Positions 5,824 through 59,706 of a stretch of DNA of 64,000 bases are shown piece by piece. Both the position numbers and the translations under genes were made by a program. Positions within the stretch are counted from its first letter, which is position 1. Every line of letters starts with the position of its first letter. The stretch lies in assembly GCA_051294905.1 (NCBI GenBank), contig CM119371.1, positions 16,928,001 to 16,992,000 of the forward strand, in the 5' to 3' direction. The notes below the pieces were generated by a model that did no database searches, was not told the origin of the DNA, and saw only the letters and a list, made by a program, of their open reading frames with translations. The stretch is from Botryllus schlosseri (lineage: Eukaryota).

Positions 5824-6998
5824 GCTTAAACTCGCTCAAAAACCGGTTACCAACGAACACGCTAATACTGATAATGGTAGCGATAGGAAAGTTGTCATCT
5901 CAGGTCAAACTAGGGCGATACTGCGATACCATCCAACCGTCGTCAACAGAGCTCTATTTTCGGTGATCAGTAATTATGAGGCCATCAAACCACTCTACTC
6001 ATCTGGGAACATTGTAGTGTCATGTTACAACCAGAGACAAGTCACGCTGTTGCTTGAATGCAGCACTATCACTGATCCAGTGACGAAAACCAACATCCCT
6101 GTGACTTGTACTGGATTTTCGCCAAGACCGTACGCCAGCAGAGCGGTTATTTCTGGGGTGCCGATCGATATCTCGGAAGATGAATTACTCGAATGCTTCG
6201 CCGAACAGAAAGCGATCTTGGTAAAACGACTCAAGAAAAAGAACGAAAAGGGCCTCACTGAAAGCTTTTCCGTATTAGTGTGCTTCAGCACGACGCAAGT
6301 TCCCCAATTCATGACATTCGGATACCTTCGCTTCAGAACGAAGCATTACAACCCCCCGCCGACCAGATGTTTCAACTGCCATCGATTCGGCCACACCGCA
6401 AAAACATGTCGCGGTCGGAAGACATGCTGTAAATGTGGAAGACGTGACCACGAATACGAAAACTGTCCAAATACTAGGAAATGTGTGAACTGCAACGAAT
6501 CACACAGCGCTGGATACGGGGGATGCCCAACATATAAAGAGGAGGCTAAAATTCAAATTGTGAAAGAACGAGCTCAAGTATCCTTCAATGAGGCACAACA
6601 TGAAGTGCGGTCGTACAAATTGCTAGTCGAACAAGCTGAACCCACAGACCATACTCTGTATTCAAAGATTCACAACAGGAAAAGTCGCAACAACAAACCA
6701 GTTCACACTAAAGTGCTGCCTAGCCCAAACGACGGGGATATTCGACCCTTGAAAAGCCAGAACAGTGTTCTACAAATTCCTCCGTCACGTACCACTGGAA
6801 TGACCGAACAGATTACTATTGACCCAATTCGCCTAATTGCGCTAGTCGCCGAAATTGTCCATGTCTCCATCACAGCCTCTCAATCAGGAAAAGATATATT
6901 CGAAATTGTAGCGGAGGCATCCAGCAAATATCTTGGTTGCTCTATAAATTCAGAGATGCTGAAACAGACAAGCCAATGCCATAATAGTACTGTGCCGA

Positions 6999-9900
6999 AT
7001 GCACAATACCATGACGAGGGAAGTCAAGAAATTCGCTAGAGGATTAACAGTTCTCCAATGGAATTGCCGAGGGATTTATAGAAAAATATACGAATTCAAA
7101 CATTTCATAGCCAACTCTACTCCAAGACCAGATGTCATACTATTACAGGAGACTCACCTCGTCGACCGATACCAACCAAAAATACGTGGCTATAGCCTTT
7201 ACCGCCGTGATAAAACCATTCATTCTGGTGGTTTAGCCATTTTCGTTGACGAAACGCTTAAATCAAACATTATGAATGAGTTCCGATCGTCGTGCATGGA
7301 AATACTATGTGTGCAGGTCAACGGCATTAAAATATGCAATGTCTATATACCCCCCGACCGCGTGGTGAATAATCAAGATCTGAACCTGTTAGCCAGGCTA
7401 TCCTCAAAATCGCTAGTGTGTGGCGATTTCAACGCCCATCACAGGTCTTGGAGCCACATGACTAGCGGCAGAGGCAGCATGGTCTGTGATCACATCGACT
7501 CGAACAATATGGTTCTACTGAATACCTCTACGCCTACCCGCATCAACTTGTCGGCGGGAGCTGTTAACCGATGGTCACTCATTGACTTAACCATTGCATC
7601 TTGTGACATAGCCCCAAAATGCACTACCACAGTAACTGACCATCTCATGGGCAGCGACCACGCAATTATCATCACGGCATACAATGACAGAATCATGAGA
7701 TCGCCACCAGCGCCTCCAAAATGGATTTTGGAAAGGGCAGATTGGGCGAAATTCTCTACTCTCGTCGACGAGAAAATATATGACGTCGACACCAGCAATG
7801 TAGAAATCATCAACAACGATCTTACCAATATATTGAAACAATCGGCAAGATCGACTATTCCAATTACGAAAGGCACCGGGAAGACCCCAATTCCGTGGTG
7901 GACTCAAGAATGTGATCGGGCTATACGACGGAAGCGTGCGTCATTCCTCAAAATGCGACGTAGCTTCCACATCGACGATATCATACGATACAAGCATATG
8001 AGGTCTCAGTGCCGACGTACCATCCTGAAAGCGAAGCGCCTCTGCTGGGAGAAATTTTGTGGGACCATGAATAAAAATACAGGAATTTCTAGAGTTTGGA
8101 GTACAATAGGGGCGCTTTCAGGAACACGAAAATCACCCACTATTCCACCCCTCGAGCTCCACAACGGTACAATCACTGACGACAAAGAGAAGGCAAATGT
8201 AATGGCGACAGAATTTTCCTCAGTTAGCAGTTCAGGGAACTACCGAACCGAATTCGTACAAATCAAGCATAATCTCGAACGGCAATTCTCTGTACCCCGC
8301 CTCCTATATACCAATGACCCTATAAACAAACCGTTCAATATGGAAGAGCTCAAATACGCCATGTCAACACGCAAAAACACTGCTCCAGGCGAGGATTCAA
8401 TTTGCTATTTGATGTTGAAAAACCTATCGCACTTAGAACTACAGAAATTACTGAATCTGTTTAATCAGTCCTGGACAAGTGGCGACCTTCCATCTGATTG
8501 GCAGCATTCGTTAGTCATATACCTATCTTGAAAAAAGACAAAAACCCTTCTACTACGAGGTCGTACCGCCCTATCGCACTTACTAGTCATGTGTGTAAGA
8601 TTATGGAGTGTATGGTGAGTCAACGACTACGCTGGTACCTAGAATCGAATAACTTACTGAATAGGTCACAATCGGGTTTTCGTAATGGACGCAGTACTCT
8701 CGATCATATACTACGACTTCACGATGAAGCATACAATGCTATTCACAACCAGCGAACTGTCGTTGCAGTGTTTTTGGACATTAAAAGCGCATACGATATG
8801 GTGTGGCGAAACGGGCTTCTATATAAACTTGACCAGTTAGGTATAAAAGGCCAAATGTTATCCTGGATCGCTGGCTTTCTTTCGAATAGATCATTCCAAG
8901 TTAGAGTGGGAAATAGCTTATCTGAAAAGCAAGTTCTCGAGAATGGTATTCCACAGGGAAGTACTATTTCACCTCTACTCTTCACAGTGATGATCAACGA
9001 CTTACCCTCGGTAATAGGTTGTGAGAATTCTCTTTTCGCGGATGATTGCGCCATATGGCAAATTGGTCTCAACGTAACATCGCTAATTTCAGAGGTACAA
9101 ATGTCCTTGGATGCAATCGAGCGCTATTGTTTACAATGGGGCTTCATACTATCGAAATCCAAAAGCGTTGCAATGTATTTCACTAAGAAGCGCTCGCTCC
9201 CGGAACTTGAGTTACGCATTGATAGCACACCAGTCGTAGTGTCCGAAAAGTTCAAATTTCTCGGGGTTATATTTGACAAAAAACTATCGTATAAATATCA
9301 TATTGAGGAGATAAGTGCTAAATGCAGCAGGAGATTGAATATGCTCCGCCTCCTCACAGGTACCACATGGGGTGCCGGTAAAGAAACTCTACTGATCGTG
9401 TACAGAACGTTTATCCGGTCACTTATTGACTATGCTCTTCCCGCGTATTATTTCGCTCCTAAATGCCACCTACAGCGGCTCCAGACGATACAAAACACTG
9501 CGCTACGGATATGCTGCGGAGCTATGCGTAGCACACCCGTCTGCGTATTACAAGCAGCGTGCGGCGAAATGCCCTTACACATACGACACAAGTATCTAAG
9601 CATGAATTACCGATGCCAATTACTTGGACAACAACCGTCTCGACATCCTTGTCTTAACGTAATAGAAGATTCATGGCATGAAATATACTGCATCACAAAA
9701 CCGAATTTTAAAACTTTTAACATCATTTCACGATCGCATATTCTCGACAGCGTGACTGTCGAGACACAACAATGGTTAACCACACCACCATGGACAATAC
9801 CGATCCCCGTCGCAGACCTGGATCTACTGAAATACACTTCGAAATGCGAAATACTGGAAAACATCAAATCCATATGCCTAGATATCATGTTTGAACGATA

Positions 9901-10759
9901 TGGGGGCTGTGTGGCAATCTACACAGACGGCTCAAAAAATTCCAATGGCGCTGGTTACGGGGTATATATTCCGGTGCATGATATCGCAATCTCTCGTACC
10001 TGCTCACCGATATCATCAGCCTTTACAATGGAATTGAAGGCGATTGAGCATGCATTATTTTGGATACTCGACCACGGCACGCGAAACCACACTTACGTCA
10101 TCTTCTCAGATTGCCTATCCGCATTAACGGCGGTTTCTAGACCTCTGAACCGACCATCAAATAACGTTATTGTATCCATATTGGAAATATTTAAACATAT
10201 ACATGATACCAGTATCGCTGTTGAATTTTCTTGGGTTCCAGGACACGCAGGAATTTCAGGTAACGAAAAAGCAGACGAATTAGCCCCAGTAGGCTCGTCA
10301 ACGCAAGATCAATCGAACCAAACTCCAAGCATTACCGTGCCAGACGCCAAAGCCGAGATGAAGAAAGTTACCCAGGAGATCTGGCAATGCGAATATTCTG
10401 CCGATGAACGGGGATCCCATTACAAGCAATTCCACAGCACACTCACCACAGGACCCGAGAAAAACGTCAGTCGCCATATCGAACGCCTGATATTTCGACT
10501 ACGGTCAGGGCACTGTGGAGTAGCAGCCCATTTATTCAGAATCGGCTGCTCGGACTCTCCGATGTGCGAAGAATGCGATGTCATCGAAACGGTCGAACAC
10601 TTTTTGATATCGTGCATTAAATACGACTTTCATCGATCATTTTTAATAACATATTGCAATCAGTTACATGTACCGTTCACCATACGCAACCTACTCTCGT
10701 CATCGCAATTGTCCACCGCCGTCGCTGAGTTCGTGATAAGTTGTAATAAGTTCATTTAG
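6999..10759 (+). pseudogene. LINE ORF2 (APE endonuclease, reverse transcriptase, RNase H, C-terminal CCHC finger) with one +2 frameshift
   Basis: APE motifs LQWNCRG, LQETHL, GDFNAHH, GSDH; RT motifs YRPIALTS, QSGFR, FLDIKSAYD, GIPQGS, LFADD, KFLG; RNase H YTDGSK, FSDC, WVPGHAGISGNEKAD; CEEC..HFLISC. An extra TA at 8518-8521 splits the ORF; removing it gives 1252 aa. Confidence 0.96.
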
Positions 10760-17789: not shown

Positions 17790-18962
17790 TGGCTTCATTT
17801 TTACATTAACTGGTTGCATTAGCTTTTCATTAGCTCCATTAGCTTCTCATTAGCTTACTTTTTCATTAGCTTAATTAGCTTTTCATTAGCTTCATTAGCT
17901 TTTCATTAGCTTACTTTTCATCAGTGTTGGGATGACTCGAGTCATGACTTGACTCGAGTCAGACTCGAGTCACCTTTTTCGTATGACTTGACTTGACTTG
18001 AGTCACTTTGCTAAAATGACTTGACTTGACTTGACTCGGCGTATCAGAAATGCGGATTGACTCGTGACTCGAAGCAAAATTCACGAGTCAATTTCAAGTC
18101 ATCAAGCAAACGATGTCGATAAAATCACTCTATCTTGCATATGGTCGAATTGTTCTCGAAACGCTGGTGTAACCCGTGAAAGCGACCAATCATTCAATAA
18201 TCGTGCGTTTTACTGAATCTCCATTGTTCTCTCACAAATAAATAGACCGCAAACGAAATGATCGGAGCATACAGCTTACGCACTAGTATAGTAGAGTAAT
18301 TTAGCGGCAAAATGTATACTTCTGTTATCTGTACCAAACCTCTTGTTTTATTGAAATTGAATTCGAATATAGTTTATATAGTCCTCGACCATTGGCGCAG
18401 GTTCTAATTGTTTCATATCAATTTGTAAATGGGTAGTGTATTGCATCTTATTAATTCGTTTCTCTATTTTTTGTTTTGGCTGCTAATTAAACTGAGGCTA
18501 TGTAATTATTTACGTAGTTGTAGCATTGCTACGTATATGTGAGCCATACAGCGCCTTCTTGCGTGAATATTTAACTCTATATTCGTTCATCGGTTCAGAA
18601 TCAATGACCACTTAATCTGTGTGTTAGACAGCTAGCAGAATACAATGACGTAAGCATGCTTCATACTTCTAAAAGGCAACTTGACTTGAATTGTGACTTG
18701 ACTCGTGACTTGACTTGACTTGACTCGACTTGACTCGAGTCACCTCCAAAAATCGAGTGACTTGACTTGACTCGAGTCACCTTCGAAAATCGATTGACTT
18801 GACTAGACTCGAGTCAAAATCTGCAATGACTCGAAATGACTCGTGACTCGAAGGTAGTGACTTGATCCCAACACTGCTTTTCATTAGCTTACTTTTTCAT
18901 TAGCCAAATTAGCTTTTCATTAGCTTTTCATTAGCTTAATTAGCTGCATTCGCTTTTCATAA
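17790..18962. repeat. Degenerate (TTTTCATTAGC)n minisatellite, split by the 17922-18876 MITE
   Basis: Many TTTTCATTAGC(TT) units at ~17790-17921 and 18877-18962. Confidence 0.9.
17922..18876 (+). mobile_element. hAT-type MITE, CAGTGTTGGGAT family with (GACTT/GACTC)n arrays, copy 1
   Basis: TIRs CAGTGTTGGGAT / ATCCCAACACTG; perfect TSD CTTTTCAT at 17914-17921 and 18877-18884. Confidence 0.95.
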
Positions 18963-23445: not shown

Positions 23446-26400
23446 CAGTGGTTCTCAACCTTTTTTGCCTCGCGGACCGGTAAAATTTCAAAAAATGTCT
23501 GGCGGACTGGTGAACTTTCAAAATTGAAATGAGGCCAAAATGTAAAGTATGCAACCTTTTTTTTGCAATTATATGGTGCTAGAGAGTGACATTTAGAGGG
23601 TTTTTATCGTATTTAATTATATTCATGATGGCATTCATGTGATTTAAAGTAGTGAGTCTGCCGAGTCGAGGTAAAATTGCCTTGCCAAATAAACGTGCTA
23701 TGACCGCCGAGAGTCGTTTACAGTCTTTCGCGCCGAAGGCCGTGGGATTAAGCGACCACGCCGACTCCAATAATATTCTTCTCTTTGATAATATCGAGAG
23801 AAGAAGCGTATCGGAGTCGACCCAAGCATTTTGTCGTGCTACCTTGCTCATGCCCACTGTCACCAGACGAAGGCTACTCTGCGAACTACGAATACAATGC
23901 GTGCCGCAAGAAAACACATTACAGCAGCTATACCGGTCATCCACAAATCCGGGCCGAAAAAGCACTTCCTCAGCCCACCCCCAAAAACGTTGGTCTTGGG
24001 ACCCCCACAGGGCGATAAGCCAAACTTCCGGGGGATTCGCCCCCAGACCCTACAGTTGGGTGGATATTTCACCTGTACTTGTGATTATAGGCGCCGACTT
24101 TTATTTTTGCATGGAGTGGCGGCATGCGCGTAGCCCGGGGGGTGTCGAAACCCCTCCCTTTGAAACGCAAAACCCCGTCGTTTTGAAATTACCATTCTGA
24201 TGCTAATATTCAGTTGCAATTCAACATGTCGTATTAGGAGTGTTACGCACGGCCCCGATCAATTAGCGAGATTCGTCTGTGCATGCGACGCGATCTCCCA
24301 TTGAGATCATTACGAAATTAGGTTATTGATTGCCGAGCGCTCGGCATTCATCGCTGAACTGAGCAGTAACATGGCGCAACAATTCTAGAACAGAAAGACA
24401 GACGAAAAGTATGATTACAAACGCGTGCGGTCAATCAGCAATTATACCTTGCCGCCAAAACAATGGGTTTTTACTTAGTATTGAGTAGCTCGCATCGCGA
24501 CAATTGATTGCTGATTGAAACATCGATTTTGACTGCATTGCTGCATTTCCCGATTTACGTTCGCAAATCATAGCTGGATTAATATTATGGGCACTGGAAT
24601 AAATTCCAACTACCAGGCCCACACAATAAAACACTGTTCAACTTTGCGCTCAAAGAATATTTATCACAAAAATGACTCGCAAAATATTTTAAACGCGGCT
24701 TGCGGCCCTCATCGATGCCAATATCGCACTTTAAATTGTCGAAGGTGAAAGTATATTTGGTCGTCAAATCGCGATATGTGTTTCTCAGAGCGCGCGATGA
24801 AATCTTAAATTTCCATCAATGAGGTCGAATTTTTACATCTCATAACGATCGTTAGTTTGCTGAAATCAGTATCAGTATGCTGTGCGAAATACATAGTAGT
24901 GAACAATTTTATCGGACTGTACAATCGTCCGGCAAGGTTGCGCTGATACCGAAATTGTAGACAGCCGCAAACCCGCAATAATTACAGTTACAGGGTGCGC
25001 GAGTCATACCTAAATACCTAGATTCGGCAATGGCAACGACCACAATTTGTTTCGACCCGGGCATGAGTTTTAATCAAAAAGATACATAAACACAAACAAT
25101 ATTACTCTCGAAGATTGTTTCTGTTTGGCGAAAGTGTATTTGTGGACGGTAGCAGGCCTGCATGCGGACGCGCTAAATCAAACCTCATACGATAGTTCAC
25201 ATGAGGTATCGACGACCCATTTCGCAAACAAATGATTCTCGCTAATTTGCAGTACGTAGCAACCATAATACGAATTGTGAATAGACATTTCAAAAGCACG
25301 GGATTTTTAGTTTTAAATGAGAAACTCACTGGCTACGAATGTAGTGCTTTAATACCGACAACGCGCTGGTTATTATCAGCCCGGGACCTACGGCCGACGT
25401 AGGTTCCGATCAGCCAGTCGAATTTGATCGTGAAACAGTGTGATTTTAATTATCGAGGTGTTATTACAGCAACAGCAATATGGGCGCATGCCGCAACCTT
25501 ATTGATGGGAATACAAATACCAGTGGTTTGAGATTCGATCCGCGATATGGTTGCGCCCGATAGAGTCCGTCCAGCAATGAAGTTTATTGGGGCATAGAAG
25601 GTTCCGGCTCAAACTAATCGAAAAAATTCAGAATTTGCGCCACGGAGAATCTCTTGTTGCATCAATATTTGACAACGTAATTCAACGCCATGTACTGCAC
25701 AATGCGCAGTATTAGTAGAAAATAAAACAATGACAAGTGACATCGACGGAATACGAATGTATAAAGCAGACAAGAATTAGTGGCCTACAGATGATAGCAA
25801 ACGAGAAAGCGCGCATCTAATTCCTCAACTTGCGTACAGCACAATGAGATTCCGAGTCTGACATCGCGACAATTGTTTGCTCATTATAACGACGTGTGAG
25901 CTACATTGCTGCATTTCCCGATAAGAGTTGGCAAAGCCTTGTTTTAGTAATGAATATGCGCATTGCGTACTTTGCGCAGGAATGACTTTCTCTTCGCAGA
26001 CATACACAAACACACTTTCCTATTTCACGATCGCGCTCCAATTAAAAAGACAATCACGAAACTAACTCAAGAATTATTCTGTAAACGAATATGCTCGCAA
26101 ATACAACTTAATTGAGAGAAGTAGAACTTGAATTCGTTTCTGTCTGGTCAAGAGAGGAGAAGGTGTTTCTCAGCGCAAGCGTGTCGAAATCGACGCCGCC
26201 AACGAGGTCGCTTCGATTGTATGACTAGTGATTAGTGATTACTAATCACGGATTACACTTTATTGGGGCGTTTTAAGCAAGTATTCAATTATTATTCACG
26301 AGCGTATCGGTTAATGCTAAATAGTTGTCATTTACGCGATAACACAGACTCGCTAATTGACAGCGTAGACGGCGGGCGTTTAAGCATTTTGCATGGGGTG

Positions 26401-27209
26401 GCGACCACCCCATAATTGTGTCACGGGGTGGCTTCGCCACCCCGCCACCCCGTAACTCGGCGCCTATGTTGTGATCACATGTATTCCACTCAGCGTAAGC
26501 AGAGAGTTTACGTAACTGATCGCGCCAATGACGAAAATTTTCGATCATTCACAACCGAAGCGGTTTTCTCGCGGCCGAGTTTTGGTCCACCTTTCGGAGT
26601 CCTATGTTTACATAAACTTCATTACGTGTTGCTGCGTCGTGATGCGGTAATGGCTGGCGCCGAAATGCCTATAAATCATGCGTATTTCTCAGAGAAGGTC
26701 ACCTAATAAGCAATACATTTAGGCACACTAATTCGTGCAAAGCGCGAAAATAAATTGAAAAATGCTGGAAAAAGTTTCAAATAAATGCGCTGATTTATGT
26801 TCATTGGCGAAATAATTTTGGGCCCTTTTCAAGCTCGGCCCCTCTCCAATTAAGCGGTTTGGGGTCAACCAGTTACGGTTCTGCACAAAGTAAATGAATC
26901 GAAAACCAATGATCAAACTGCGCTGTTTAGTGATGAGTAAGCTCGTATCTGTTCTGTATTTGTCGCTCGCATGTCGTCAAATAAAACTTCTTTAACTTTA
27001 AGTCAAATCGAACATGATTCCAGCCCTAATGTTACCTCACGAAGTTATGAATCAGTTTAAAATTTGATGTTTTATTTATTTTATCAATGGTCCAGCCTTC
27101 AACATTGCATCTTGAAATTGAAGTATAAAATTGTAATATACCTGGCGGACCGGCAGTAATGTCGTCGCGGACCGGCACCGGTCCGCGGACCGGCGGTTGA
27201 GAACCACTG
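23446..27209. mobile_element. hAT (Buster-like) non-autonomous element with GCGGACCGG subterminal motifs
   Basis: Perfect TIRs CAGTGGTTCTCAACC / GGTTGAGAACCACTG; perfect TSD CCCTAGCC at 23438-23445 and 27210-27217. Confidence 0.95.
24086..26468 (-). mobile_element. Second, inverted copy of the CATAGGC family, nested in 23446-27209
   Basis: Ends TATAGGCGCCGAC / CTCGGCGCCTATG; TTGTGAT on both flanks; ~25197-26468 aligns in reverse with ~1093-2327. Confidence 0.9.
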
Positions 27210-28309: not shown

Positions 28310-29275
28310 CAGTGTTGGGATGACTCGAGTCATGACTTGACTCGAGTCAGACTCGAGTCAACTTTTTCGTATGACTTGACTTGACTCGAGTCACTTTGCA
28401 AAAATGACTTGACTTGACTTGACTTGGAGCTTAAGAAATCTGCATTGACTCGTGACTCGGAGCAAAATTTACGAGTCAATTTCAAGTCATTAAGTAAACA
28501 GTGTTAGGATTGTTCAAGATACGCCGGTGTAACTTGCGAGAGCAACCAGTCATTCACTGATTGTACGTCACACTTAACCTCCATCGTTACATCACAAATA
28601 AATTGACCGCAAACGAAACGATTACAGTTTACGTTGTCGTACCAGTAGTAGATTATTCTAATAGCAACATGTATCTGTTTCTTAGACGGCTCATTGCTTA
28701 CGTTGCGCATTGTTCAGTTTTGCCAACCCTCTTGTATGATTTGAATCGAACAAATATAGTCTGTGCGTTTATATTCTTACGGATGTGTAGATGGGTAGTG
28801 TAGGCCATTGTACCAAATCCATTTGTTTCAACTTTTCGTGGCTTCGTATTCGATCCTATATTTTGGCTGATAATAACTGACTGTAGCATATAACTGTACA
28901 GCTACTCACGTATTATAATAGCAGTTCTACGTTTGCGTGGGAGATGTAACGTCTTTTTGCATGTTTATTCAACTTTATATTCGTTATTTGACTCAAGATA
29001 AATGGTCAAATAATCAGTCTTTCACACACCTAGCAAAATGAAATGACTTTGAATCATTACTCATACTTCGAAATTCAATTTGACTTGAATTGTGACTTGA
29101 CTCGTGACTTGACTTGACTTGACTCGACTTGACTCGAGTCACCTCCAAAAAACGGGTGACTTGACTTGACTCGAGTCACCTTCGAAAATCGATTGACTTG
29201 ACTTGACTCGAGTCAAAATGTGCAATGACTCGAGATGACTCGTGACTCGAAGGTAGTGACTTGATCCCAACACTG
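28310..29275 (+). mobile_element. CAGTGTTGGGAT-family MITE, copy 2
   Basis: Same TIRs and GACTT arrays as copy 1; perfect TSD CTAATATG at 28302-28309 and 29276-29283. Confidence 0.95.
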
Positions 29276-29503
29276 CTAATATGCCACCAATAATGACTGT
29301 TGCCCAACTTGTATACATCTTTAATTGTACGTCCGAATATCCAGGCGCATTAATGTGGATGGAAACGAAATCATATTGACATTTAGTGTCATATAGACAC
29401 ACATATATAGTCTAATATCGTCCAACACCATTCACTAAATTCCATCATGCTATCGTATTGCTCGTTATGGTAAACAGTCCACGCATGCACGCGTAAAGCT
29501 TAC

Positions 29504-40821: not shown

Positions 40822-41754
40822 CAGTGTTGGGATGACACGAGTCATGACTTGACTCGAGTCAGACTTGAGCAAACTTTTTTGCATGACTTGACTTGAATCG
40901 AGTCACTTTGCAAAAATGATTGACTTGACTTGACTCGGCGCTTCAGAAATGTGGATTGACTCAATTTCAAGTCATCTAGTAAACGGTGTCGATTAAATCG
41001 CTGCATCTTGTTTATTTCCGGATTGTTCGCGATACGCCGGTGTGACTTGTGAGAGCAATCAGTCATTCACTGATTTTACTTTTCACTTATCCTCCATTGC
41101 TACATCACAAATAAATTGACCGAAAACGAAATGATCACAGCTTACGTTTATGTACTAGCTGTAGAATAATTTAATAGCAACGTATCTCTGTGTGTTAGAC
41201 GGCTCAGTGCTTACATCGCGAAGTGCCTACCTTAGCCAATCCTCCGTATGATTTGAGTCGAACGAATATAGTTTATGCGTTTATAATCTCAAGGATGTGT
41301 GGATGGGTAGTGTAATGTACCATTTCAATTTGTTTCAACTTCTTGGCGCTTCGTATTCGATCCTCTATTTTGGCTCACGTATTTTATCAGCAGCCCGAAG
41401 CGTGTGTGAGAGATACAACGCCTTTTTGCACGTAATACTCGGTAATTGATTCAAGATATATCAATAATCAATCTGTCATTCACACAGCTAGCAAAATGTA
41501 ATGACTTTGAATCATCACTCATACTTCGAAAATTCAATTTGACTTGAATTGCTACTTGACTCGTGACATGACTTGACTTGACTTGACTTGACTTGACTCG
41601 ACTTGACTCGAGTCACCTCCAAAAAACGAGTGACTTGACTTGACTCGAGTCGAGTCAACTTCGAAAATCGATTGACTTGACTTGACTCAAGTCAAAATGT
41701 GGAATGACTCGAGATGATTCGAGACTCGAAGGTAGTGACTTGATCCCAACACCG
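40822..41754 (+). mobile_element. CAGTGTTGGGAT-family MITE, copy 3
   Basis: Same termini (right end ...CCCAACACCG); TSD GATAACAC and GATGACAC, 7/8. Confidence 0.93.
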
Positions 41755-42111
41755 GATGACACCGGCCCATGGAGGTTAGCTACTATGGTTTGTGAAAGCA
41801 AATCTATTATATTATCATTTATACAGGTGTTACCAACTATTTGGATGGACTGTACTATAAATTATAAAATGCCTGACTTAAACCTAAATGCTCACCGTAT
41901 GTACGTTGAAATTCTCTCGGTGTGGGATATGTGGAAGATGGCGAATGCATATCTTCGTACAGGTCTTCTGATACTTTACAATGAAAATTGTAAATACCAT
42001 TATATTCTAAGCAGGTAGAATAGATTCAGCCAGAACGATGTTGATATTTTATTTCTAAAATCTATGCACAATGTTTGCGAATCTTGCTAGAAGGAGTGTA
42101 GTTTCTGGAGT

Positions 42112-45896: not shown

Positions 45897-46218
45897 CGAA
45901 GAAGTATATTGTCCCTACATTATGACTAAGCACTCTCAAGCTATACCTGCGACAAGTAGTTCGAGTCATCATTTCCCGTCATTAGATCGGTTGCGATTGT
46001 TTCAATATCTTCTCGTGTCCCATGAACAGCCAATGCCTCTATTCGAAGATCCTGCATTCGTTATTGCGCATTTGTTGTTGTTACAGATGTGGAGTAACAT
46101 AGGAATTCAGTCCACAAGGATTGGTAACTCAGCTAATAGATTCGGAGGATTACTACAATGCTGTTTCGGCGATATAAATAACCTCATTTACGGCTATGTT
46201 TATTATTCTAATTGTAAT

Positions 46219-47026
46219 CATTGTTGAGTCGACTCGACTCATTAATTGACTCGATTCAGACTAGAGTCAACTTTTTCAGATGACTTGACTTGACTTCACT
46301 CGGCATTTCAAAAATGTGGATTTACCCGTGACTCGAAGCAAAATTTTCGAGTCAATTTCGAGTCATTAAGTAATCGGTGTCGACTAAGCCACAAGATGAT
46401 ATGACCTGTGTTGGCAACCAGTCACTCAAAGATTGCGCAGCAGGTATTACAGAGCTGCCTGCGGTATGTCAAAAATAAATTGACCGTAAACGAAGTGATT
46501 AGAACTTACCTTGTCGTAGACTAGTAATCTATCGATAGCAGTGTAATTATGTTCCATAGACTGCTAAGTGCTCACTTCAACGTACGTATAGTATATTTTA
46601 AATCGAGGGTATATAGTTTTTCATTTATATTACTTGTCAACAATATGTGAAGTCTTAAATTGTATCGCATGGAAGTTTAGGTGACTATTCTAACATCTAT
46701 TTGGTTGGCAGTTACGTATACGTACCTACGTATATGTGAGCAATTCAACGTCTCGCTGAAGACATAATTAAGTCGATGTTCGATGATTCTTGATTCAGAA
46801 TTAACAGCGACTCAATCTGTACTTCAATCATCTTGCCAAAAGCAATCACTAGAATCATGCCTCGTGCTTCGAGAACCCGACATGCCTTTGTGATTTGACT
46901 GGTGACTTGACTCAAATTGACTTCCAGTCACTTAAAAAATCATGTGACGTGACTTGACTCGAGACAAAATATGCAATAACTCGTTATGGGTTGTGACTCG
47001 AAGTTAGTGTCTTGATCGCAACACTG
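46219..47026 (+). mobile_element. CAGTGTTGGGAT-family MITE, copy 4 (most diverged)
   Basis: Degenerate termini CATTGTTGAG / ATCGCAACACTG; shared internal AAATAAATTGACCG.AAACGAA block; flanks ATTGTAAT and ATTTAAAT. Confidence 0.85.
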
Positions 47027-49706: not shown

Positions 49707-50310
49707 CAGGGATGGTGCGAACCAGTGATGAGCGGACAGTGCTTTCGAGACTCCGAATCTCTCCGACAACTTTAGTGTCTGAGGAAAACTCCCTCCGACT
49801 CCGAAGAGTTCAATTCCAGACTCCGAGATACTTCGATGAATCTCGTCAAGTGTCCGAAACAGTGGCAAGCATGGTACACTTGGTAATGTGTTTTACATAA
49901 TTAATGTGATAATAGGGTTGGCCTCATAGTATTGTCTACTCTCCAGTCCCCAATTGCAGTGCAGATGGCTGTTTTGATGCACTTGGCGATATATTACAAC
50001 TTTGCAAGGTGTCAACTGTCTGTGTTTTGGTTTGTAATCATAATCAAGAGTGTATTCTGGTAAGAGCTATCCGAAGATATCGGAGACACGAAGTTACAAT
50101 ACTCCGAAATTATCCGGAAAAATATCTGTAGTAAATTCCGACTCCGCACCGACTGTCGCAAAATCGGCAAAACTCCGCTCCAAATCCACTCCGACTCCGC
50201 TCCGATGATCATCACTAGTGCGAAAGTGAGGCTCACGTTTCGCTTCGGTGTTCGAAACACAGAAATTTGGACGTTAGCGTTCGCAAACAAACCCCGGTAT
50301 GTACTCCATT
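49707..50310 (-). mobile_element. Inverted terminal fragment of the TAGGGATGGTG family, interrupted by 49723-50217
   Basis: After removing the insert it matches the reverse complement of ~58085-58181. Confidence 0.7.
49723..50217. mobile_element. hAT-type MITE with ACTCCG repeats
   Basis: Ends CAGTGATGA / TCATCACTA; TSD GTGCGAAC (49715-49722) and GTGCGAAA (50218-50225). Confidence 0.85.
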
Positions 50311-51987
50311 ACATTGCGTACCTTATATAGGAAATACAATTACCTAAATACTTCAACAATTTGGTTGACATTAACTCCATTTTAACTTCGAACTACTTTA
50401 TGCATGGCGCTGACACGGTAAGGGGTGAAATTATTCAGCACTAAACTAAAATTAACTTTGCCAGTTTCAAATAAATATATTCGTCGTATTAAAAACATTT
50501 GAATGAAATGTCTGACTTTTCCGTTTGTTATATTTTAGACCGTCCACGGTCATTGCTGCTATAGCTTGGCCCGTAATCACACAACATCACGAACACTATG
50601 CGTAGGACGATAGACAGTCATATATTGATAGTGACAAATCATTTACCAATTAAACATAATTGACGAAGAGAGCGTATCGTTGTTTGAAGTAAAAGTTACG
50701 TTTGTTCAATGTGCAATGTGCATGTATAAGCATTCAGATATGTGAGGACTTCAATGTCCTTCGGACTGAGGTATAATGCGCTTTACAATTAGGGTTGCAT
50801 TTCAAACACAAATAAATTTGAAACAAACATGATTAAAACATGTTTTTATTGTTTGTTTTTTTTAACTAATGACGTCACGAATATTCAATATTCAATATAC
50901 GGCGTCAGTACAACCCCTGTAAGGTTCAGTAAATATTGTCCATATGCATGCAGCGTAACTGTGATGTTGGGCTGGTAATCGAACCAAGAGTGATGTACAC
51001 AATTCGTATCGTAACCGTTAGACTTATATCGCCTGCATGCATGGCATTGACAACCGAGACGCGGATGGTCAGGTGGAGCATTAGCACCAATGTGCCCTGC
51101 ACCCTGAGGCAAACGACAGACACGTCATACGCTTATAATTCAACATTAATTATTATTATTATATACTTTGAAAGATTTAGGATTGTACATAACACAATCT
51201 TGATTTCTCGATATAAAATGTATAGTGGCGGCAACGGAAAGCGCAGTGAAGCGGTTGTTATTGAGTGCTTTAAATATAACTTTTTCTTTTCGATATGTAA
51301 ACTATATTACTAAATTCTAATTACTCAATATCCAATTCAAATTTGTTGATTATAGTCACACCCATCCACAATATCACTTTATGATATTTTTTGCAAACAG
51401 GACTTAACTTTGATATCGGATATAAATGTATCTTCCAACTATATTGAAGATCTAGGCCTCAAGGACTTTAAAGATTCAAAAATCCCAATAAATTTTAAGC
51501 CTTACATTGTGTTCGCCAGAACATCTCCCAGTTCTGAATTCGAAATCATCTTGCTGTACACCTTGATATACCATCTCTCCAATATGGCCACTAAGTAGCA
51601 GCTTATCGTAACCTTGGAAGAGTTCAGCGTCAAATATGGCTGGTACTTGCAGCGATGATATCTGGAAAATATTCCATATTCGTTGATAGCTCATGAACTC
51701 AAGCAGGTGGAACTGGGCGCTAGCATTGACAGCGCTACTTCAACATGTTCAAACGACGTGTCCACGGATCTGATCTCAAAATTGCATGTATCTCCCTACT
51801 AGGGATGGTGCGAACCCCTGAAAGGTTCAGGTTCGTGTGAACGCGAACCTTTTTGAAAGGTTCTCTGTGAACGCGAATGTGCTAATTCCAAACCTAAATT
51901 TCAGTGAAGTGATATATTAATCTCGGCTACACGAAACCTAGCGACGTCTTAGGCCTCATTATGCCACAATGGTGAAGTACTCGCTGA

Positions 51988-52047
51988 AGTTTTAAACTTC
52001 ACCAAATGCATCGACTGGAGCAATCAAATGTTATAATAACACCATAA
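51988..52047. repeat. 60-bp perfect direct repeat flanking the copia element (second copy 57040-57099)
   Basis: AGTTTTAAACTTCACCAAATGCATCGACTGGAGCAATCAAATGTTATAATAACACCATAA abuts both outer LTR ends. Confidence 0.97.
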
Positions 52048-52328
52048 TGATGAACGATCTATCTTGACCTGATCCGTCGAGGCTTTAGATATATCTTCAA
52101 TCGAATTAAATTTATTTTACAGAAGCAGATAATCTGTTCTTACAGCAGCAAGTAGCATCCAGCGTAGACAACACAGGCAAATTAACAGCAAGCACTAGCG
52201 AACACACAAACGCATTTATACTCCACGTCTTAACCTAACAATCAAACAATCATTGACCTAATCAAATGAGAGAAACAGAAATACTAAATGAGAGTTCACA
52301 GGTCATAAGTAATTAAAGCTTCGCAACA
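52048..52328 (-). repeat. 3' LTR
   Basis: 281 bp; one mismatch seen versus 56759-57039 (ACTCCAC vs ACACCAC). Confidence 0.97.
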
Positions 52329-52339
52329 CTCCTTCTCTT
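52329..52339 (-). promoter_or_regulatory. Polypurine tract
   Basis: AAGAGAAGGAG on the minus strand immediately before the 3' LTR. Confidence 0.9.
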
Positions 52340-52356
52340 ACGACATGCAGTATCTC

Positions 52357-55300
52357 TCATTCAAGAATACGAGAAATTCCGATTTGCTCCCTCAAATTGC
52401 AGAAAGACTGTCGACGTAGCGGCTTTGTAAATATGTCGACAAGCTGCTTTTCAGTCGGAACGTATTGGATGTCAATCTTGTTCGCATCGAGTTCGTCTCG
52501 GATATATCCAAATTTCACGGCTATATGTTTCGTTGCTTGGTGATTAACCGGGTTTCGGCACATCGCGATCGCGCTTTGGTTGTCTTCAAAGATGGTGATC
52601 GGTAGTTTGACGCTATTCCCCATCTCTTCAAATAACTGACGAAGCCATGCGGTCTCACGAGCGGCGAGATTCAGTGCGATAAATTCTGCTTCGGCTGTGG
52701 ACTGCGCCGTTACTGATTGTTTCTTTGATCTCCAACAAATTGGAGCATTTCCCATCAAGATAATGTACCCCGAGGTCGATTTCCTGTCATCACGGTCACC
52801 ACCGAAATCGGCATCTGCAAAAGCTGTAATAGTGTTAAAACCACTCTTATAAGTTATACCGTAATCAACAGTTCCTCGAATGTAACGCAATAAATGTTTA
52901 ATCATTTGCCAATGATATACGGTCGGATCACTGTTGTATTGTGCTAGTTTAGCCACTGCGAACGCAATGTCGGGTCGAGTATACATCGCCAGATAAAGTA
53001 GACTCCCAACAGCAGTTTGATATTTCGACGAATCAAACCTTTTGTCTGTCGGTTTAGCTTTCTCAATCACTGCTCCCGAATCCATTGGAGTAGACACAGG
53101 CTTACACTCGGACATTCCGAATCGTTCCAGCACACTTCTTGCATAACAATCTTGTCCGATCCAAATACAATTACCTGTCTGCTTGACACGCATACCAAAA
53201 AAATGGTGTAACATACCCATATCTTTGACATTGAACATCTTTTGCAAAGTAGACTTCGTCTTCGCAATTACTTTCTTCGTTTTTCCCCCTAAGAGTATAT
53301 CGTCAACGTAGACAGCCAATTGTACGACTGCATCGTCGTAAACGCCACTGTAAATACAAGGATCAGATTTCGTTTGTTTAAAGCCCACCTTAATCAATTC
53401 CTCGTGCAGAGCTTGATTCCAGCATCGCGGTGATTGCTTCAAACCATATATGGACTTTCTCAAGAGACACACCTTATCCGCTTGTCCTTTCTGTACAAAG
53501 CCTTCGGGCTGTTTCATATAGATAGTCTCGTCTAATCTACCATGTAGAAAAGCGGTTTTGACGTCCATCTGATGTATTTCCATATTTTCTTCGACTGCCA
53601 ATGCAACATACGCTCGAAATGAACTTGCATGAACGACAGGCGAAAACGTTTGTTCGTAGTCTTTTCCGTATCTCTGGGTATTCCCAAGTGCTACAAGTCT
53701 TGCTTTGGCACGCGTCGCGTTTCCATTTTCGTCGTATTTATACTTGAGACCCATTTATTCCCCAAAACCTTCGCATCGGTTGGAGGATTAACAAGATCCC
53801 ACACTTTTAAATCTTTCATCGATGTGATTTCTTCATTTGCAGCCTCTTTCCACATATCAGAGTGCTCTGACTGGAAGGCTTCTTTCAAGTTTTTCGGTTC
53901 ATTCAACTGATGAACTGCTGCGTGTATCGCATAAGTCAGCACTTCTGTGTCTTCGGTTTGCTCGAAATTCTCATTGTAAGCAAGTCTTGGTGGAGGATTT
54001 CCTGCATTCCGTCGCGATGATCGACGCACTCCTTCCACTTGTTCATTCGTCGGCGTTTCTACCAATCGGTTATCCGCTGATTGCTGTTCGTCACTGTTTA
54101 ATGAAGGATAGATGAATGACGATGTAGCACACTCAGGCTGAACTTCAGTCGATTCTCCTTCCTGGCCAAATCGGGATTCATCAAATTTCACGTGTCGCCG
54201 AATCAGAACTTTTTTCCTGTCTTCGGACCACAGACGGTAACCTTTGGATAATAAGTCATAACCGATTAAATTGCACACTTCAGCTTTCGGATCAAGCTTT
54301 TTCTTCCTTTTACTTTTCTCTATGAAGGCATAGGCTTTACATCCAAATATTCTCAAGTGTCTTACATTCGGCCTAGTCCCATGATAAGCTTCAAATGGAG
54401 TTTTGTTGTTGAGAGCGACGGTTGGACTTCTGTTCTTCAGATAAGCGGCTGTCAATATTGCTTCCGCCCACAAAAAACAGGTAATTTTGCACCGTGAAGC
54501 ATCGCAGAAGCTCTCTCGCAGAGAACTCGGTTCAAGCGTTCCGCAACTCCATTTTGCGAAGGGCATGACCGTACAGACTTCTCATGTCTGATGCCTTTTT
54601 CTTTCAACCATGATTCGCATTCATTGCTCACGTATTCTCCGCCATTGTCCGTGCGTAGCCTATACATCCAACTGACTGACGTCGAACTTTTTCTTGGTTT
54701 AAAACGAAAAATTTAAGTTCAGCGAACACATCGGACTTCCGTTTCAGAGGTATCACCCACGACATTCGACTGTAATCGTCAGTAAACGTTAGAAAGTATT
54801 TTGAACCACCTTGTGACTCTGGTGAAATGGGTCCACAAACATCTGAGTGAATCAATTCCAACGTCCTTGTTGCACGGCGTTCAGATCGTTTCGGGAATGG
54901 TAACTTTGTGGATTTCCCCAATGCACACGGTTCACAAAAATTCATGTTCTTCGACTCAGTCAACTTCAGGTCGTTAACCATATTCTTCGCAACCATTTTA
55001 CGAAGATTTTCCTCGCCAATGTGACCAAAACGTTGATGCCATACATCAGCTGATGTGGTACCACCAAAGCACTTTTCGTTTTGTTCATAATCATCAACAG
55101 GATTACTGATATCTTCAAAATTGTTCTTGGACTTTCCACGTCCGGATAAAACTCCTTCTGCACAGCGCATGATTTGAGAGTCTTTTCGATCTAGCTCTGC
55201 ATCATCGGTGTCAGATTCTTCAATGTCTGTACCAGTTGCACCAGTACGAAAGCAATTGATATCACGATTCAATTCGTCATGATCATCATCAGTAAAATCA

Positions 55301-56718
55301 CGAATTCCGCTGTTCTCATTGCTTTTCAACGGTATCTTCATTTCTTCTTTGTTACAAGGTCGATAATCTAACATGTAGAGACCATTTTTCAGCGAACCAG
55401 TTGCAACAATATGACCCTCGTATCGATCCAAAATTCGAAGCTTCTTCGAGTTGAAAGTAACTTCATACTGATGCCTGGCAACTGCAGCTCGAATCGAGAA
55501 TAATGTTGTCGATAGGTCCGGCACATAAAGCGCATTCTGCAAATCTGCAATGCCATATTCTTCGCCATCTCGGAAGATAATTATTCGAAGAGTTCCGATC
55601 CCTTCAGAGTAAATCAGGTTTCAATCGCCTAATTCAATTTCTTCGTGGCAATGTTTCAGGTCGATGAACAATTCTTTCCTGCAACTCATGTGACTAGTTG
55701 CACCACTATCGCATATTACAAATTGTCGATTTCGAGACAAAAATGCTGACGTGTGAAGCAAGTAGTGTCTTTTGACTCCAGAGATTGATTCAACACGTGG
55801 CATGTAATTCTTCGATCCAAGATTCTTGGAACGCACGACGTCAGATGAATAAAACATCGCATGTTTCTCTGATTTCTTAGTACGAGATGCTTGTCTGCGA
55901 CTATTGCCGTTTTCGTCGTCGGCATAGTTAGCACTTTGACGTTGTCGATTTTCTCGGTGTTTCCTGAAATCACTTCCTTTTCCACGTTCACAAGACACGC
56001 GTTTTTCTTCACGTTCTTCATTATTTTCAGGACGGTTCCAACAGTCCGAAATCTTATGACCATACTTTCCGCAATGATCACAATTGCCATGAAATTTCAG
56101 TTTTCCACTCTTTCGTCTTGCATTGTTTCTTGCGTGGTACGCCTGTACAGACTCTTTCGGTCGAATCGATAGATCAGTTTGTACGCGTAGTAACAAATCA
56201 TTCAACGAGAATCCCGGCTTGTTCTGTATCTCATTCAGAATATAGCTTCGAGTTACATCAAGACTAGGAGGCAAGTGCTTGATCACTTCGAAAACTTGGT
56301 CGGTCTCGGCAACGGCACGACCCAAGCTCGCCATCCTTTGGAATAGCATTTGACATTCCTCAATTTTCTCAAGAACGTTCTTTTCCGTGAATGTCGGCAA
56401 CATATCTATCTCCATCTTCAATGTGAGATAAAGCGTAGCATTCTGTGGTTCAAACTTCGCCTTCAAGTCATTCCAAATTTCCTTGGGATCATCGTGGTGA
56501 TCTTCAGGTATAGTTGGTAACACGGATCCACTCAAGTTACAGAGCAGAATTCCTGCGGCTTTCATTTTTCTAGAGGCAGCTCCTTCTGCGGTGTCATTGC
56601 CCATAACACTATTCCACAACTCATTCGCCATGAGGAGGCCTTTCACTTGGACTTTCCATGACGTCCAATTACTGTTTTTACCGCATTTCAGTTTATCTAG
56701 GCTTGAAATTGCTGACAT
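52357..56718 (-). pseudogene. copia gag-pol polyprotein with four lesions
   Basis: Knuckle CDHCGKYGHKISDC; protease DSGATSHM; WHQRFGH; integrase IHSDVCGP, RTDNGGEY, QNGVAERLNR; RT QMDVKTAFLHG, YVDD; RNase H ADADF, AEAEF, EDNQSA, TKHI. Lesions: TGA at 55621-55623, +5 at 54658-54662, -1 in the A-run 54472-54477, -1 near 53748. Repaired length 1452 aa. Confidence 0.95.
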
Positions 56719-56744
56719 TGTGGCTGTAGACACGAGATTAGCAA

Positions 56745-56756
56745 GGGCGCATAACC
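56745..56756 (-). promoter_or_regulatory. Primer-binding site
   Basis: GGTTATGCGCCC two bases inside the 5' LTR, one change from the GGTTATGGGCCC initiator-tRNA-Met half-molecule PBS of Drosophila copia-like elements. Confidence 0.85.
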
Positions 56757-56758
56757 TT

Positions 56759-57039
56759 TGATGAACGATCTATCTTGACCTGATCCGTCGAGGCTTTAGA
56801 TATATCTTCAATCGAATTAAATTTATTTTACAGAAGCAGATAATCTGTTCTTACAGCAGCAAGTAGCATCCAGCGTAGACAACACAGGCAAATTAACAGC
56901 AAGCACTAGCGAACACACAAACGCATTTATACACCACGTCTTAACCTAACAATCAAACAATCATTGACCTAATCAAATGAGAGAAACAGAAATACTAAAT
57001 GAGAGTTCACAGGTCATAAGTAATTAAAGCTTCGCAACA
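56759..57039 (-). repeat. 5' LTR
   Basis: 281 bp, TG...CA, adjacent to the PBS. Confidence 0.97.
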
Positions 57040-58186
57040 AGTTTTAAACTTCACCAAATGCATCGACTGGAGCAATCAAATGTTATAATAACACCATAAA
57101 ATCAACATCTTTCGTCTATTTGCCAGCAATTTCGGCGAGGACTCGCAAGGGGATATAAGCTACACCTAAACGGTCGAGGCCAGATCGGACAATGTATCCG
57201 GCGTCTGACCACTGCTACATTGATATTGCGCAGAATGCAAAAGGGTTTCTATACTTGCTACCGATATTAGTCCGCCCCATATACAAGTTATACAGTGGCC
57301 CATAAGATTCCAATCGCACATATTTTTATTTATTTTTTTTGATACAACAAACATATCAAATCAAGATGCGTCCCTTACGCCAGCTGGAATTTTGACATTA
57401 GGCAACGACGTATTCCTTGTATCACTTCCAATGATTGGTTGAATACTTAATCATCATTCGCTGATGTTGTGTGATTGCGGGTGAAGCTAACAGCAGATCA
57501 ATGTTCCCTATAATTTTTCCAGAGTCTGCGCGCACTAATCAACTCACTGCGCGGTTCCTTGGACAACAGTGCGTGACGACTAAAAGATCAGTCATTACGG
57601 TGATTTGACTGCCGAATTGTCCACTCTTCTCGTTAATTTTGTGGTTCTGACTAAAAAAAGGTCATCACTTCGGCTTTACATTGCCTGTGCGCAGAGACTG
57701 GCGAGCGGCATAGCTTACAGCCATGGTTTACGGCTTGTTTGAAACCAGGCAACGGTGGCTACGCACTCATGCATCATTTTTGACTCTCTGGCGCTATCCT
57801 GGGGGTCAGTCTTGAAAAATGAGAGAAAGAAAGAGATTTTTTAGAGAAAAGTTCGTTTATTTAGTCTTATACAAAACCCTAGACATGTCTTGGGGTGTCG
57901 ATCGAGGGCGGAAACGGTAGATGGATATAGTCCGCCCACTTTTAAACTGAAACAGCCCAGAGTTAACTCTGGCTGAGGTCACGGTATGAATTTGAAAAGT
58001 GATGGTCAGTGTCGCGAAAACTGACCAGATTTCAAAAGGGATAAGGACGTGACAAATTGTAAAACATGAAAAAGGTTCACAGTACAGAACCTACCAAGGT
58101 TCGTTTGTGAACGTGAACCTCTAAATTTGTGAGGTTCACACACGGAAAGCGAACGTGAACCTCACGCTCACACCATCCCTATAGTT

Positions 58187-59518
58187 CAGGGGTTCTCAAC
58201 CCGGGGGGCGCGCCCACCTTGGGGGGCGCGGGAGGCTCTCAGGGGGAGCTCGAGAAATGTTTGTCAATTTTGTAAATGTCTGTATAAATTTGGACTAAAC
58301 ATGTGTTTCACAACCATTCTGAAGAGACGATTATTGAAGATTAAACTTAAGTCGTATTCTAGAAAGCTTGCCAAAGTCAAACTCCAGCACTCGCGCTCAA
58401 CGGAGTATAGGCTGACTACAACTTCATTTGAGCAAATTTTGATATTATTTGAAGATTTAGAGAAATTCCGACGTGCAAGTCATTCATTACTTTATAGCTT
58501 TGGCAGTAGCCTAAATCTCTGTGCGCTAGGTAGCTGTTGTTGATAGCTGGCGATCTGCACTGCCTAAGACTGACTTAAATGCAATATAGGTTGCCCGGTT
58601 TCGGCCTCGATTCGGCTATAAATCAACACCATTTAATTCATTTCCAAAACTGATCGAATTTAGCATTACAGGACAGAACGACACCGTGCTCTCTGTAGTC
58701 ACTACCAGCATCAGGATTATAGTCTCAGTGCAACACACCTTGAAATTAGTTGATGTCCTTTTCAATGTTTTTTTGTTATTTTCAAACAAGTTTGGGGAAG
58801 TTTGTCAGCAACTGGAATGCGGATTCAAAATTGGCGTAAGATATTCCTCATGTATACTATTAGATCAGGGGTTTGCAGCCCGTACGGTAGCAGCCGGCCG
58901 TAGAAGGGAATTTGAGCGGCCGTCGACGACTAATTCAATTAGCATGTGTTAACAGCCGTAGACATGCAAATTGCAATTACGAATTCAGTCCCGAATTCTA
59001 GTGAGATTTTATTTGATCTTGAAATTTTCTTCGCGCTCCGCGCAATTCAACATGACTTCTTTTTTCGATTTAAATGCAGTAGCGCCCTTCTTACTTGGAG
59101 CAAGAATGGGAATCCTCAAGAAATAACAATTCATTCGCGGCTCTTAAACATTTTCGCGCTCCGCGCGACAATATACACTCCCAGCCACTATTCATAACAT
59201 TGCCACTCGCGATTTCAGTGCGTACAATAGGCCGTTGTGAAAAGTAGAATAGTCCGGAGTTCACCGGGAATGGATATGGGCAGTTTACCATAGGTATTTT
59301 GCGTCCAGATCGTTCATTGTGACTATGCCCTGGAATGCGGCCTTATAGGCTACATAAGTAATCGAAATGCGGTCATGATTAGCAAGAAGGTTGCCAACCT
59401 CCGTATTAGATGATGTGCTCTTTTTGAAATGACGATAAATGTAAGGGGGGTCAGGGGGCGCGATTTTTTTTGACCATCGTCAAGGGGGGCGCGTGTCAAA
59501 AAAGGTTAAGAACCGCTG
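58187..59518. mobile_element. hAT (Buster-like) MITE with GGGGCGCG motifs
   Basis: Ends CAGGGGTTCTCAACC / GGTTAAGAACCGCTG; perfect TSD CTATAGTT at 58179-58186 and 59519-59526. Confidence 0.92.
58866..59403 (+). mobile_element. Nested hAT MITE, same family as 62082-62864
   Basis: Perfect TSD TATTAGAT at 58858-58865 and 59404-59411; both ends align with 62082-62864. Confidence 0.88.
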
Positions 59519-59706
59519 CTATAGTTCCTACCATGTAATATAATCAACATGCGGGTGCTTTGTATTATAGTTGATATCATCTTCATTCATATTTAACGGA
59601 AATACTATCCATATATCTGTGGTTCGCAGTCGCTGAGTTAGCTACTATATACTTATAGTGGATACAGGAAATAAACACCACTTTTGTCCATATATATAAT
59701 ATTTAC

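Follow-up and report, generated by a model that had tools for sequence, protein, structure and literature searches.

A copia retrotransposon in Botryllus schlosseri flanked by an exact 60-bp duplication of host DNA

A stretch of 64,000 nucleotides of the Botryllus schlosseri genome (called the window here, with positions counted from its first letter) carries a Ty1/copia retrotransposon whose two outer ends each adjoin the same 60 bases of host DNA. The feature is real and exact; most likely, an ordinary, if defective, copia element integrated aberrantly here, as a sporadic event.

An exact direct repeat at both ends of the element

The sequences at positions 51988–52047 and 57040–57099 are identical at 60 of 60 bases and form a direct repeat. 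These are the only two copies in the 64-kb window, both on the same strand, with none on the opposite strand.

51988–52047, no strand assigned: duplicated host sequence, left copy, identical to 57040–57099
57040–57099, no strand assigned: duplicated host sequence, right copy, identical to 51988–52047

Read along the plus strand, the 60-mers adjoin the outer LTR ends, TG at 52048 and CA at 57039, with no filler at either joint. The repeat extends by no base to the right and by 1 base to the left, because position 51987 and the final LTR position (57039) both carry A; the duplication length is accordingly 60 with a 1-base ambiguity. Identity over 60 bases at these fixed positions has a random expectation of about 5e-36, and a chance origin of the match is excluded. 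A short target-site duplication (TSD) is absent at the element edges, and none was found at the outer flanks of the two 60-mers. The preliminary description had reported an exact 60-bp repeat adjoining intact TG/CA ends, with differing immediate flanks (CATAA versus AGTTT), and direct sequence comparison confirms this arrangement. The element thus displays the pattern by which HERV-K-type cases are recognized, namely a long, near-identical direct repeat adjoining both element ends.

Several other sources for the repeated bases were considered. Capture of element sequence was rejected, with alignment scores of 27 and 22, whereas shuffled sequences reached up to 30 and 31, as was the possibility that the 60-mer is extra LTR length: it precedes one LTR and follows the other. 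The 60-mer matches the rest of the window only at shuffle level, and no paralogous empty site occurs within the window. Convincing microhomology was not found at the joints, where the overlap at the U3 end is 1 base and anchored similarity gives p values of 0.25 and 0.047. A 5-base word at the end of the 60-mer that recurs in the primer site was also set aside; about 0.9% of random sites match in this way, the word lies 4 bases out of register and it was noticed post hoc.

A young and defective Ty1/copia element

The inserted DNA is a minus-strand Ty1/copia element with the order 5′ LTR, 2-base spacer, primer site, gag-pol, polypurine tract and 3′ LTR.

56759–57039, minus strand: 5′ LTR, 281 bp, TGTTG start at 57039 in the element sense, CA end
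56745–56758, minus strand: 2-base spacer and primer binding site of the GGTTATG type, read from the sequence
55621–56769, minus strand: frame piece 1, stop to stop, gag with a CCHC knuckle and the start of protease (PF14223, E 4.7e-14; PF22936 below cut-off)
54628–55620, minus strand: frame piece 2, remaining protease, integrase zinc-binding part and start of the integrase core (PF13976, E 5.9e-13; PF00665 below cut-off)
53691–54581, minus strand: frame piece 3, integrase end, SH3-like domain and linker (PF25597, E 9.7e-28)
52357–53754, minus strand: frame piece 4, reverse transcriptase (RT) and RNase H region (PF07727, E 4.4e-65; full-length matches to copia polyproteins, best 61% identity)
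52329–52339, minus strand: polypurine tract adjoining the 3′ LTR, read from the sequence
52048–52328, minus strand: 3′ LTR, 281 bp, one difference from the 5′ LTR, at 52222

The LTR pair (52048–52328 and 56759–57039) matches at 280 of 281 bases, position 52222 being the only difference, and the element is young. Since gag-pol is split into four frame pieces, this copy is defective. The Pfam order on the minus strand is that of copia (gag, protease-type, integrase zinc-binding, integrase core, SH3, RVT_2), and, owing to the broken frames, the protease and integrase-core scores fall below the curated cut-offs. RNase H gave no Pfam match; its region was read from alignments with full-length homologues and from putative RNase H motifs in frame piece 4. 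The U5 and U3 ends form an imperfect inverted repeat (CATCA versus TGTTG).

The domain order, the RVT_2 match and the two direct TG...CA LTRs with an internal primer site and a polypurine tract all place the element within Ty1/copia, whose TSDs are expected to measure 4–6 bp, against 60 bp here. TSD length characterizes an insertion and not ancestry; by descent the element belongs to copia, and only this insertion is atypical. The primer site presumably matches a half tRNA-iMet primer, and a tRNA scan of the window returned none. Membership in the GalEa clade, for which the primer site is given as TGGTAGCAGAGC (PMC3587641), was rejected on this feature, the GGTTATG type being present instead.

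Among the proteins searched (808–2305 residues), the closest is 61% identical over the RT–RNase H region and the next ones are about 50% identical; the closest matches (48–61%) carry no element name. An exact search with a 22-base LTR end gave 0 matches in metagenome and viral contigs, and an RT search of the viral contigs gave 1 pattern match and no relative.

The host repeat and its haplotypes

The 60-mer is host DNA and lies 188 bases from the start, at 51800, of a very high-copy repeat. Hundreds of contigs break off at 51797–51800, and joints of other repeat copies run into the 60-mer at 51991, 51992 and 52014; the 60-mer therefore appears to be part of the body of this high-copy repeat. 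The repeat is apparently hAT-like, a label taken from its terminal motif.

51800–51987, plus strand: left end of a high-copy, hAT-like non-autonomous element, the apparent host of the insertion (terminal motif at 51800; contig ends)
58054–58181, minus strand: matching terminal motif ending at 58181, possibly the other end of the host element
51985–52001, no strand assigned: 17-bp palindrome with 8-bp arms around a 1-base centre, lying across the left boundary of the duplication

No 8-bp target duplication is common to the ends at 51800 and 58181, even allowing for a nested element at about 58186–59518. The palindrome was noticed post hoc, and the window contains 37 comparable palindromes, which cover 0.8% of it. 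In plants, the preference for palindromes at insertion sites is described as slight (PMC6911290).

Of 14 sequencing runs listed, 10 contain part of the region. Contigs of X1, X8 and X9 were compared over 50300–56758, a stretch that takes in the left-hand flank, one copy each of the 60-mer and the LTR, and the element's interior and reaches the left junction only, without the flank of the right junction; the raw Hi-C run X11 contributed 0 reads there. X1 carries the left-flank haplotype of the window with 0 differences (records 1, 2 and 4; depth 8.6–10.2) and may be the sample behind the window assembly, hence non-independent. A second X1 haplotype (record 3) differs at 33 of about 281 nearby left-flank positions (11.7%), and the sample is highly heterozygous. 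X8 (record 9) differs at 32 of 385 nearby positions (8.3%).

Two LTR variants trace this copy in the contigs. The variant at 52086, common to both window LTRs, has a depth of 27.5 of 5011.5 in X1 and is absent from X8 and X9, whereas the variant at 52222, private to the left LTR, occurs only in X1 at a depth of 6.2, the level of a single haplotype. Because both variants are present in X1, the LTR sequences of the window are not consensus noise, and the LTR sub-lineage of this copy is rare. The internal region reaches depths of 330–845 in X1, which indicates a multi-copy copia family, depth not being a copy number. Most family copies in X1, X8 and X9 differ from this element at one frame break and about a dozen internal positions among those listed, in contigs that drop rare variants.

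One further X1 contig, at depth 11.8, links 51753 to 51989 with 26 other letters in between. It lands at the start of the 60-mer, the edge of the duplication, and may represent a second haplotype that lacks the left end of the repeat.

Origin of the long duplication

We consider it probable that the duplication arose in a single, sporadic, uncoordinated integration whose ends were joined 60 bp apart. An ordinary copia cDNA would have entered a single chromosome with a spacing of 60 bp between its two joints, where 5 is usual, by either of two routes. Integrase could have carried out two independent half-reactions, one for each end, on opposite strands; alternatively, it could have attached a single end, the second being connected by host repair once a neighbouring piece of target DNA had been copied. 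The 60-bp interval would then have been copied by strand-displacement synthesis or at the following replication fork, leaving one copy on each side of the element. Exact ends, the absence of filler and weak junction similarity make integrase at both ends somewhat likelier than host repair. The truncated end expected from host repair is likewise missing: neither end is truncated, and the U3 overlap and the two similarity values are those given above. The model of one-ended integration is set out in PMC5041404, where one end is described as 'often' truncated and 'usually' joined through short homology; the intact ends seen here therefore make the host-repair route less probable.

The identity of the two 60-mers speaks for one template. 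At the divergence implied by the LTRs (0.2–0.36%), two such 60-mers would be identical with a probability of 0.81–0.89, but at the haplotype differences found nearby, measured outside the 60-mer, this probability falls to 0.006 (8.3%) or 0.0006 (11.7%). With nearby haplotypes 8–12% apart and the 60-mers identical, one template is thus likelier than two alleles or a chimera. If the local haplotype divergence were 3%, the probability would be 0.16 and the argument from identity would fade. It also counts against the single event that no bridging piece is among those listed for the contigs, and that the two ends of the presumed host element have no target duplication in common.

Precedents for such events come from retroviruses. 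In HERV-K, 8 of 451 putative duplications exceed 10 bp, with a range of 13–450 bp (Kahyo et al. 2017, PMC5488345); they include one of 61 bp with 0 mismatches and one provirus with 450 bp, and for two of the long duplications the empty allele was sequenced (PMC5488345). Long TSDs of HERV-K (HML-2) are also attributed to Mamedov et al., as cited in PMC5488345. The likeness is close in that an exact or near-exact host duplication far exceeds the 5–6 bp of the family, and the same question of true versus pseudo-duplication arises; the difference is that HERV-K is a retrovirus, whereas the present case is a Ty1/copia element in an invertebrate, known from the insertion-bearing sequence alone. For XMRV, 1 of 15 integrations has a 273-bp duplication, with a damaged LTR end (PMC2857682). 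Aberrant integrations of HIV-1, ASLV and XMRV likewise duplicate tens to thousands of adjacent host bases in one event. They were set off by a drug, by weak integrase or by damage to an end, and their abnormal joint often involves a truncated end or short homology, whereas both ends of the Botryllus copia are intact (PMC5041404; PMC2857682). Among LTR retrotransposons, Drosophila opus, Tabor and mdg1 also have longer-than-expected duplications, but these are somatic, with medians of 23–26 bp from few events, and copia gives 5 bp (PMC8090852). A Ty1/copia case with a long duplication was not found in the literature searched, in which subscription papers are thinly covered, making this weak evidence of absence; the available portions of PMC4528315, PMC2939329 and PMC6911290 likewise yielded none. 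Plant surveys report duplications of 4–6 bp, and in one of these (PMC6317226) only elements with a TSD from LTR-FINDER were scored.

We also determined duplication lengths in copia relatives. The RT piece was aligned with 19 homologues, 111 loci were fetched and the 64 that are at least 4.3 kb long were scanned for LTR pairs. Ten loci with an LTR pair and both outer flanks were picked by hand, repeats that touch a contig end or are not LTRs having been dropped, and exact flank matches of 4–299 bp were sought. An exact 5-bp duplication is present in 7 of the 10 complete relatives, 3 have none and a long one occurs in 0 of 10. Two of the three without a duplication have LTRs that are only 85–86% alike, and the third has an unresolved 3′ LTR end. 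Seven of the 10 have a GGTTATG-type site after the 5′ LTR. The seven relatives with 5-bp duplications (L001, L003, L033, L072, L074, L078 and L085) resemble the Botryllus element in RT, short TG LTRs, a length of about 4.3–5.3 kb and a GGTTATG-type site; they differ in that all seven carry 5-bp duplications, and their RT is only 38–50% identical to that of the Botryllus element. They represent the wider copia group, not the element's own family, whose other copies presumably carry 5-bp duplications as well. The 2-base spacer, which was rejected as a sign of a damaged end, also occurs in L033, with its 5-bp duplication, and in another X1 copy.

These relatives bear on whether long duplications are a recurrent product of the family or of this target site, caused, for instance, by poor coordination within the intasome or by pausing at a hairpin-prone target. 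Precise joining at both ends, the imperfect inverted repeat formed by the U5 and U3 ends, the palindrome overlapping one edge of the duplication and the three Drosophila families, with their low numbers, would all suit such a mode. However, no complete relative has a long duplication and the mode is represented by a single copy; about 2% of HERV-K copies are sporadically long, and one case is therefore to be expected in a large scan. Such recurrence seems doubtful to us, and equally so the form of it that amounts to a family rule, in which uncoupled ends would give many copies a duplication tens of bases long with the TG...CA ends still exact. Of the three origins that the preliminary description had offered, non-concerted integration stands as the best reading in the form of a sporadic event, and its suggestion of a family-specific trait finds no support, distant relatives having 5-bp duplications. 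Its other two, recombination between allelic insertions and a haplotype chimera, lose weight from identical 60-mers amid haplotypes 8–12% apart, and each keeps a small probability.

The former would be a pseudo-duplication, in which two insertions of the same family with 5-bp duplications, 55 bp apart in alleles or paralogous host copies, recombined, and a crossover inside the element sequence linked the left flank of one insertion with the right flank of the other. For HERV-K, pseudo-TSDs arising by way of duplicated regions are discussed as a model (PMC5488345), and near-aligned insertions become less improbable in a very high-copy host whose 60-mer region recurs (51991, 51992 and 52014). 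The lack of a common target duplication at the terminal motifs (51800 and 58181) also speaks for recombination. Still, the crossover would need two same-orientation insertions of one rare sub-lineage, at its small share of X1 depth and its absence from X8 and X9, as well as identical 60-mers from two sources, when local haplotypes are 8–12% apart and most contigs are less than 99% alike. A joint from 51992 to 52048, which would mark a parental 5-bp allele, is also absent from the 15 joints listed of 45, a weak point against the crossover, and we regard it as unlikely, if less so than a recurrent mode.

A chimeric assembly, built from two haplotypes that bore separate normal insertions 55 bp apart, is more improbable still than recurrence. 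The sample is highly heterozygous, and none of the 24 pieces listed, of more than 22,000, bridges the junction between 60-mer and LTR, in a listing that covers 18 of 699 loose ends and with only the left junction lying in the compared stretch. An assembler, however, would use junctions borne by reads, so that two independent insertions 55 bp apart would still be needed; the source haplotypes are about 12% apart nearby, for which the probability of identical 60-mers is the 0.0006 given above; and the LTR variants of the window are present in X1 contigs. Least probable by a little is a normal 5-bp insertion that later suffered a junction break, repaired by a template switch to the empty allele or the sister, with 55 extra bases copied. 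The same final structure would be expected, and this edge may be prone to breakage, given the deletion joints at 51989–51992 in several further copies or haplotypes. Yet this repair needs a homology-free return exactly to the terminal LTR base, and a copy from the divergent second haplotype would differ.

As a one-off, a single uncoordinated integration extends a known rarity of retroviral integration to Ty1/copia and to the invertebrate germ line, long duplications around intact LTR elements being already known for HERV-K (PMC5488345). Surveys that demand short duplications (for example, PMC6317226) cannot count such events. If the long duplication were instead routine for the family, its integrase would be a natural example of uncoupled strand transfer, on which ideas of intasome coordination could be tested; were it a family rule, this mode of integration would be invisible to LTR finders that demand duplications of 4–6 bp. 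The present insertion can also be lost cleanly, through recombination between its two 60-mers.

Left edge of the duplicated 60-mer

When contigs are aligned to the window, one contig of single-haplotype depth from sequencing run X1 passes from position 51753 to position 51989 by way of 26 other letters. This joint, a contig jump between two window positions, ends one base within the 60-bp host sequence that is duplicated on either side of the copia element. Contigs from another run, X8, contain two joints with ends at 51991 and 51992, near the left edge of the 60-mer. This edge may be prone to breakage, or it may be merely the start of a conserved block. A perfect palindrome with 8-bp arms (51985–52001) overlaps the left edge of the duplication.

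Copia family members and relatives

Another X1 joint, from 54151 to 52048, represents a member of the element's family that has lost much of its interior. The primer site and spacer are retained beside its LTR, and this copy is possibly a non-autonomous derivative. Two relatives fetched by RT homology (L001:3172–7600 and L003:631–4950) carry LTRs ending in TA rather than CA, although their 5-bp duplications are clean nonetheless. Complete copia elements are also found at four loci (L078, L085, L096 and L105) on contigs filed as bacterial genome bins, and these contigs are probably eukaryotic contamination.

Other repeats in the window

An end of the host-type repeat lies at 49707–50305, where it is interrupted 16 bases in by a nested element of ~500 bp that seems to be flanked by a short duplication. 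Immediately to the right of 58181 a second hAT-like element (58186–59526) is inserted, and it seems to have an 8-bp duplication. Further repeats are as follows.

Further repeats, in window coordinates
17922–18878, 28310–29277, 40822–41756 and 46186–47026: non-autonomous element, ~1 kb, four copies
1093–2336 and 25189–26468: ~1.3-kb repeat, two copies, inverted
5801–10759, plus strand: LINE-type element

The four ~1-kb copies have the ends CAGTGTTG and subterminal GACTT/GACTC repeats, and the inverted copies are ~85% alike and separated by 23 kb. The LINE-type element encodes, in separate frames, a 412-amino-acid product that has no Pfam match, then an endonuclease, and then an RT with RNase H.
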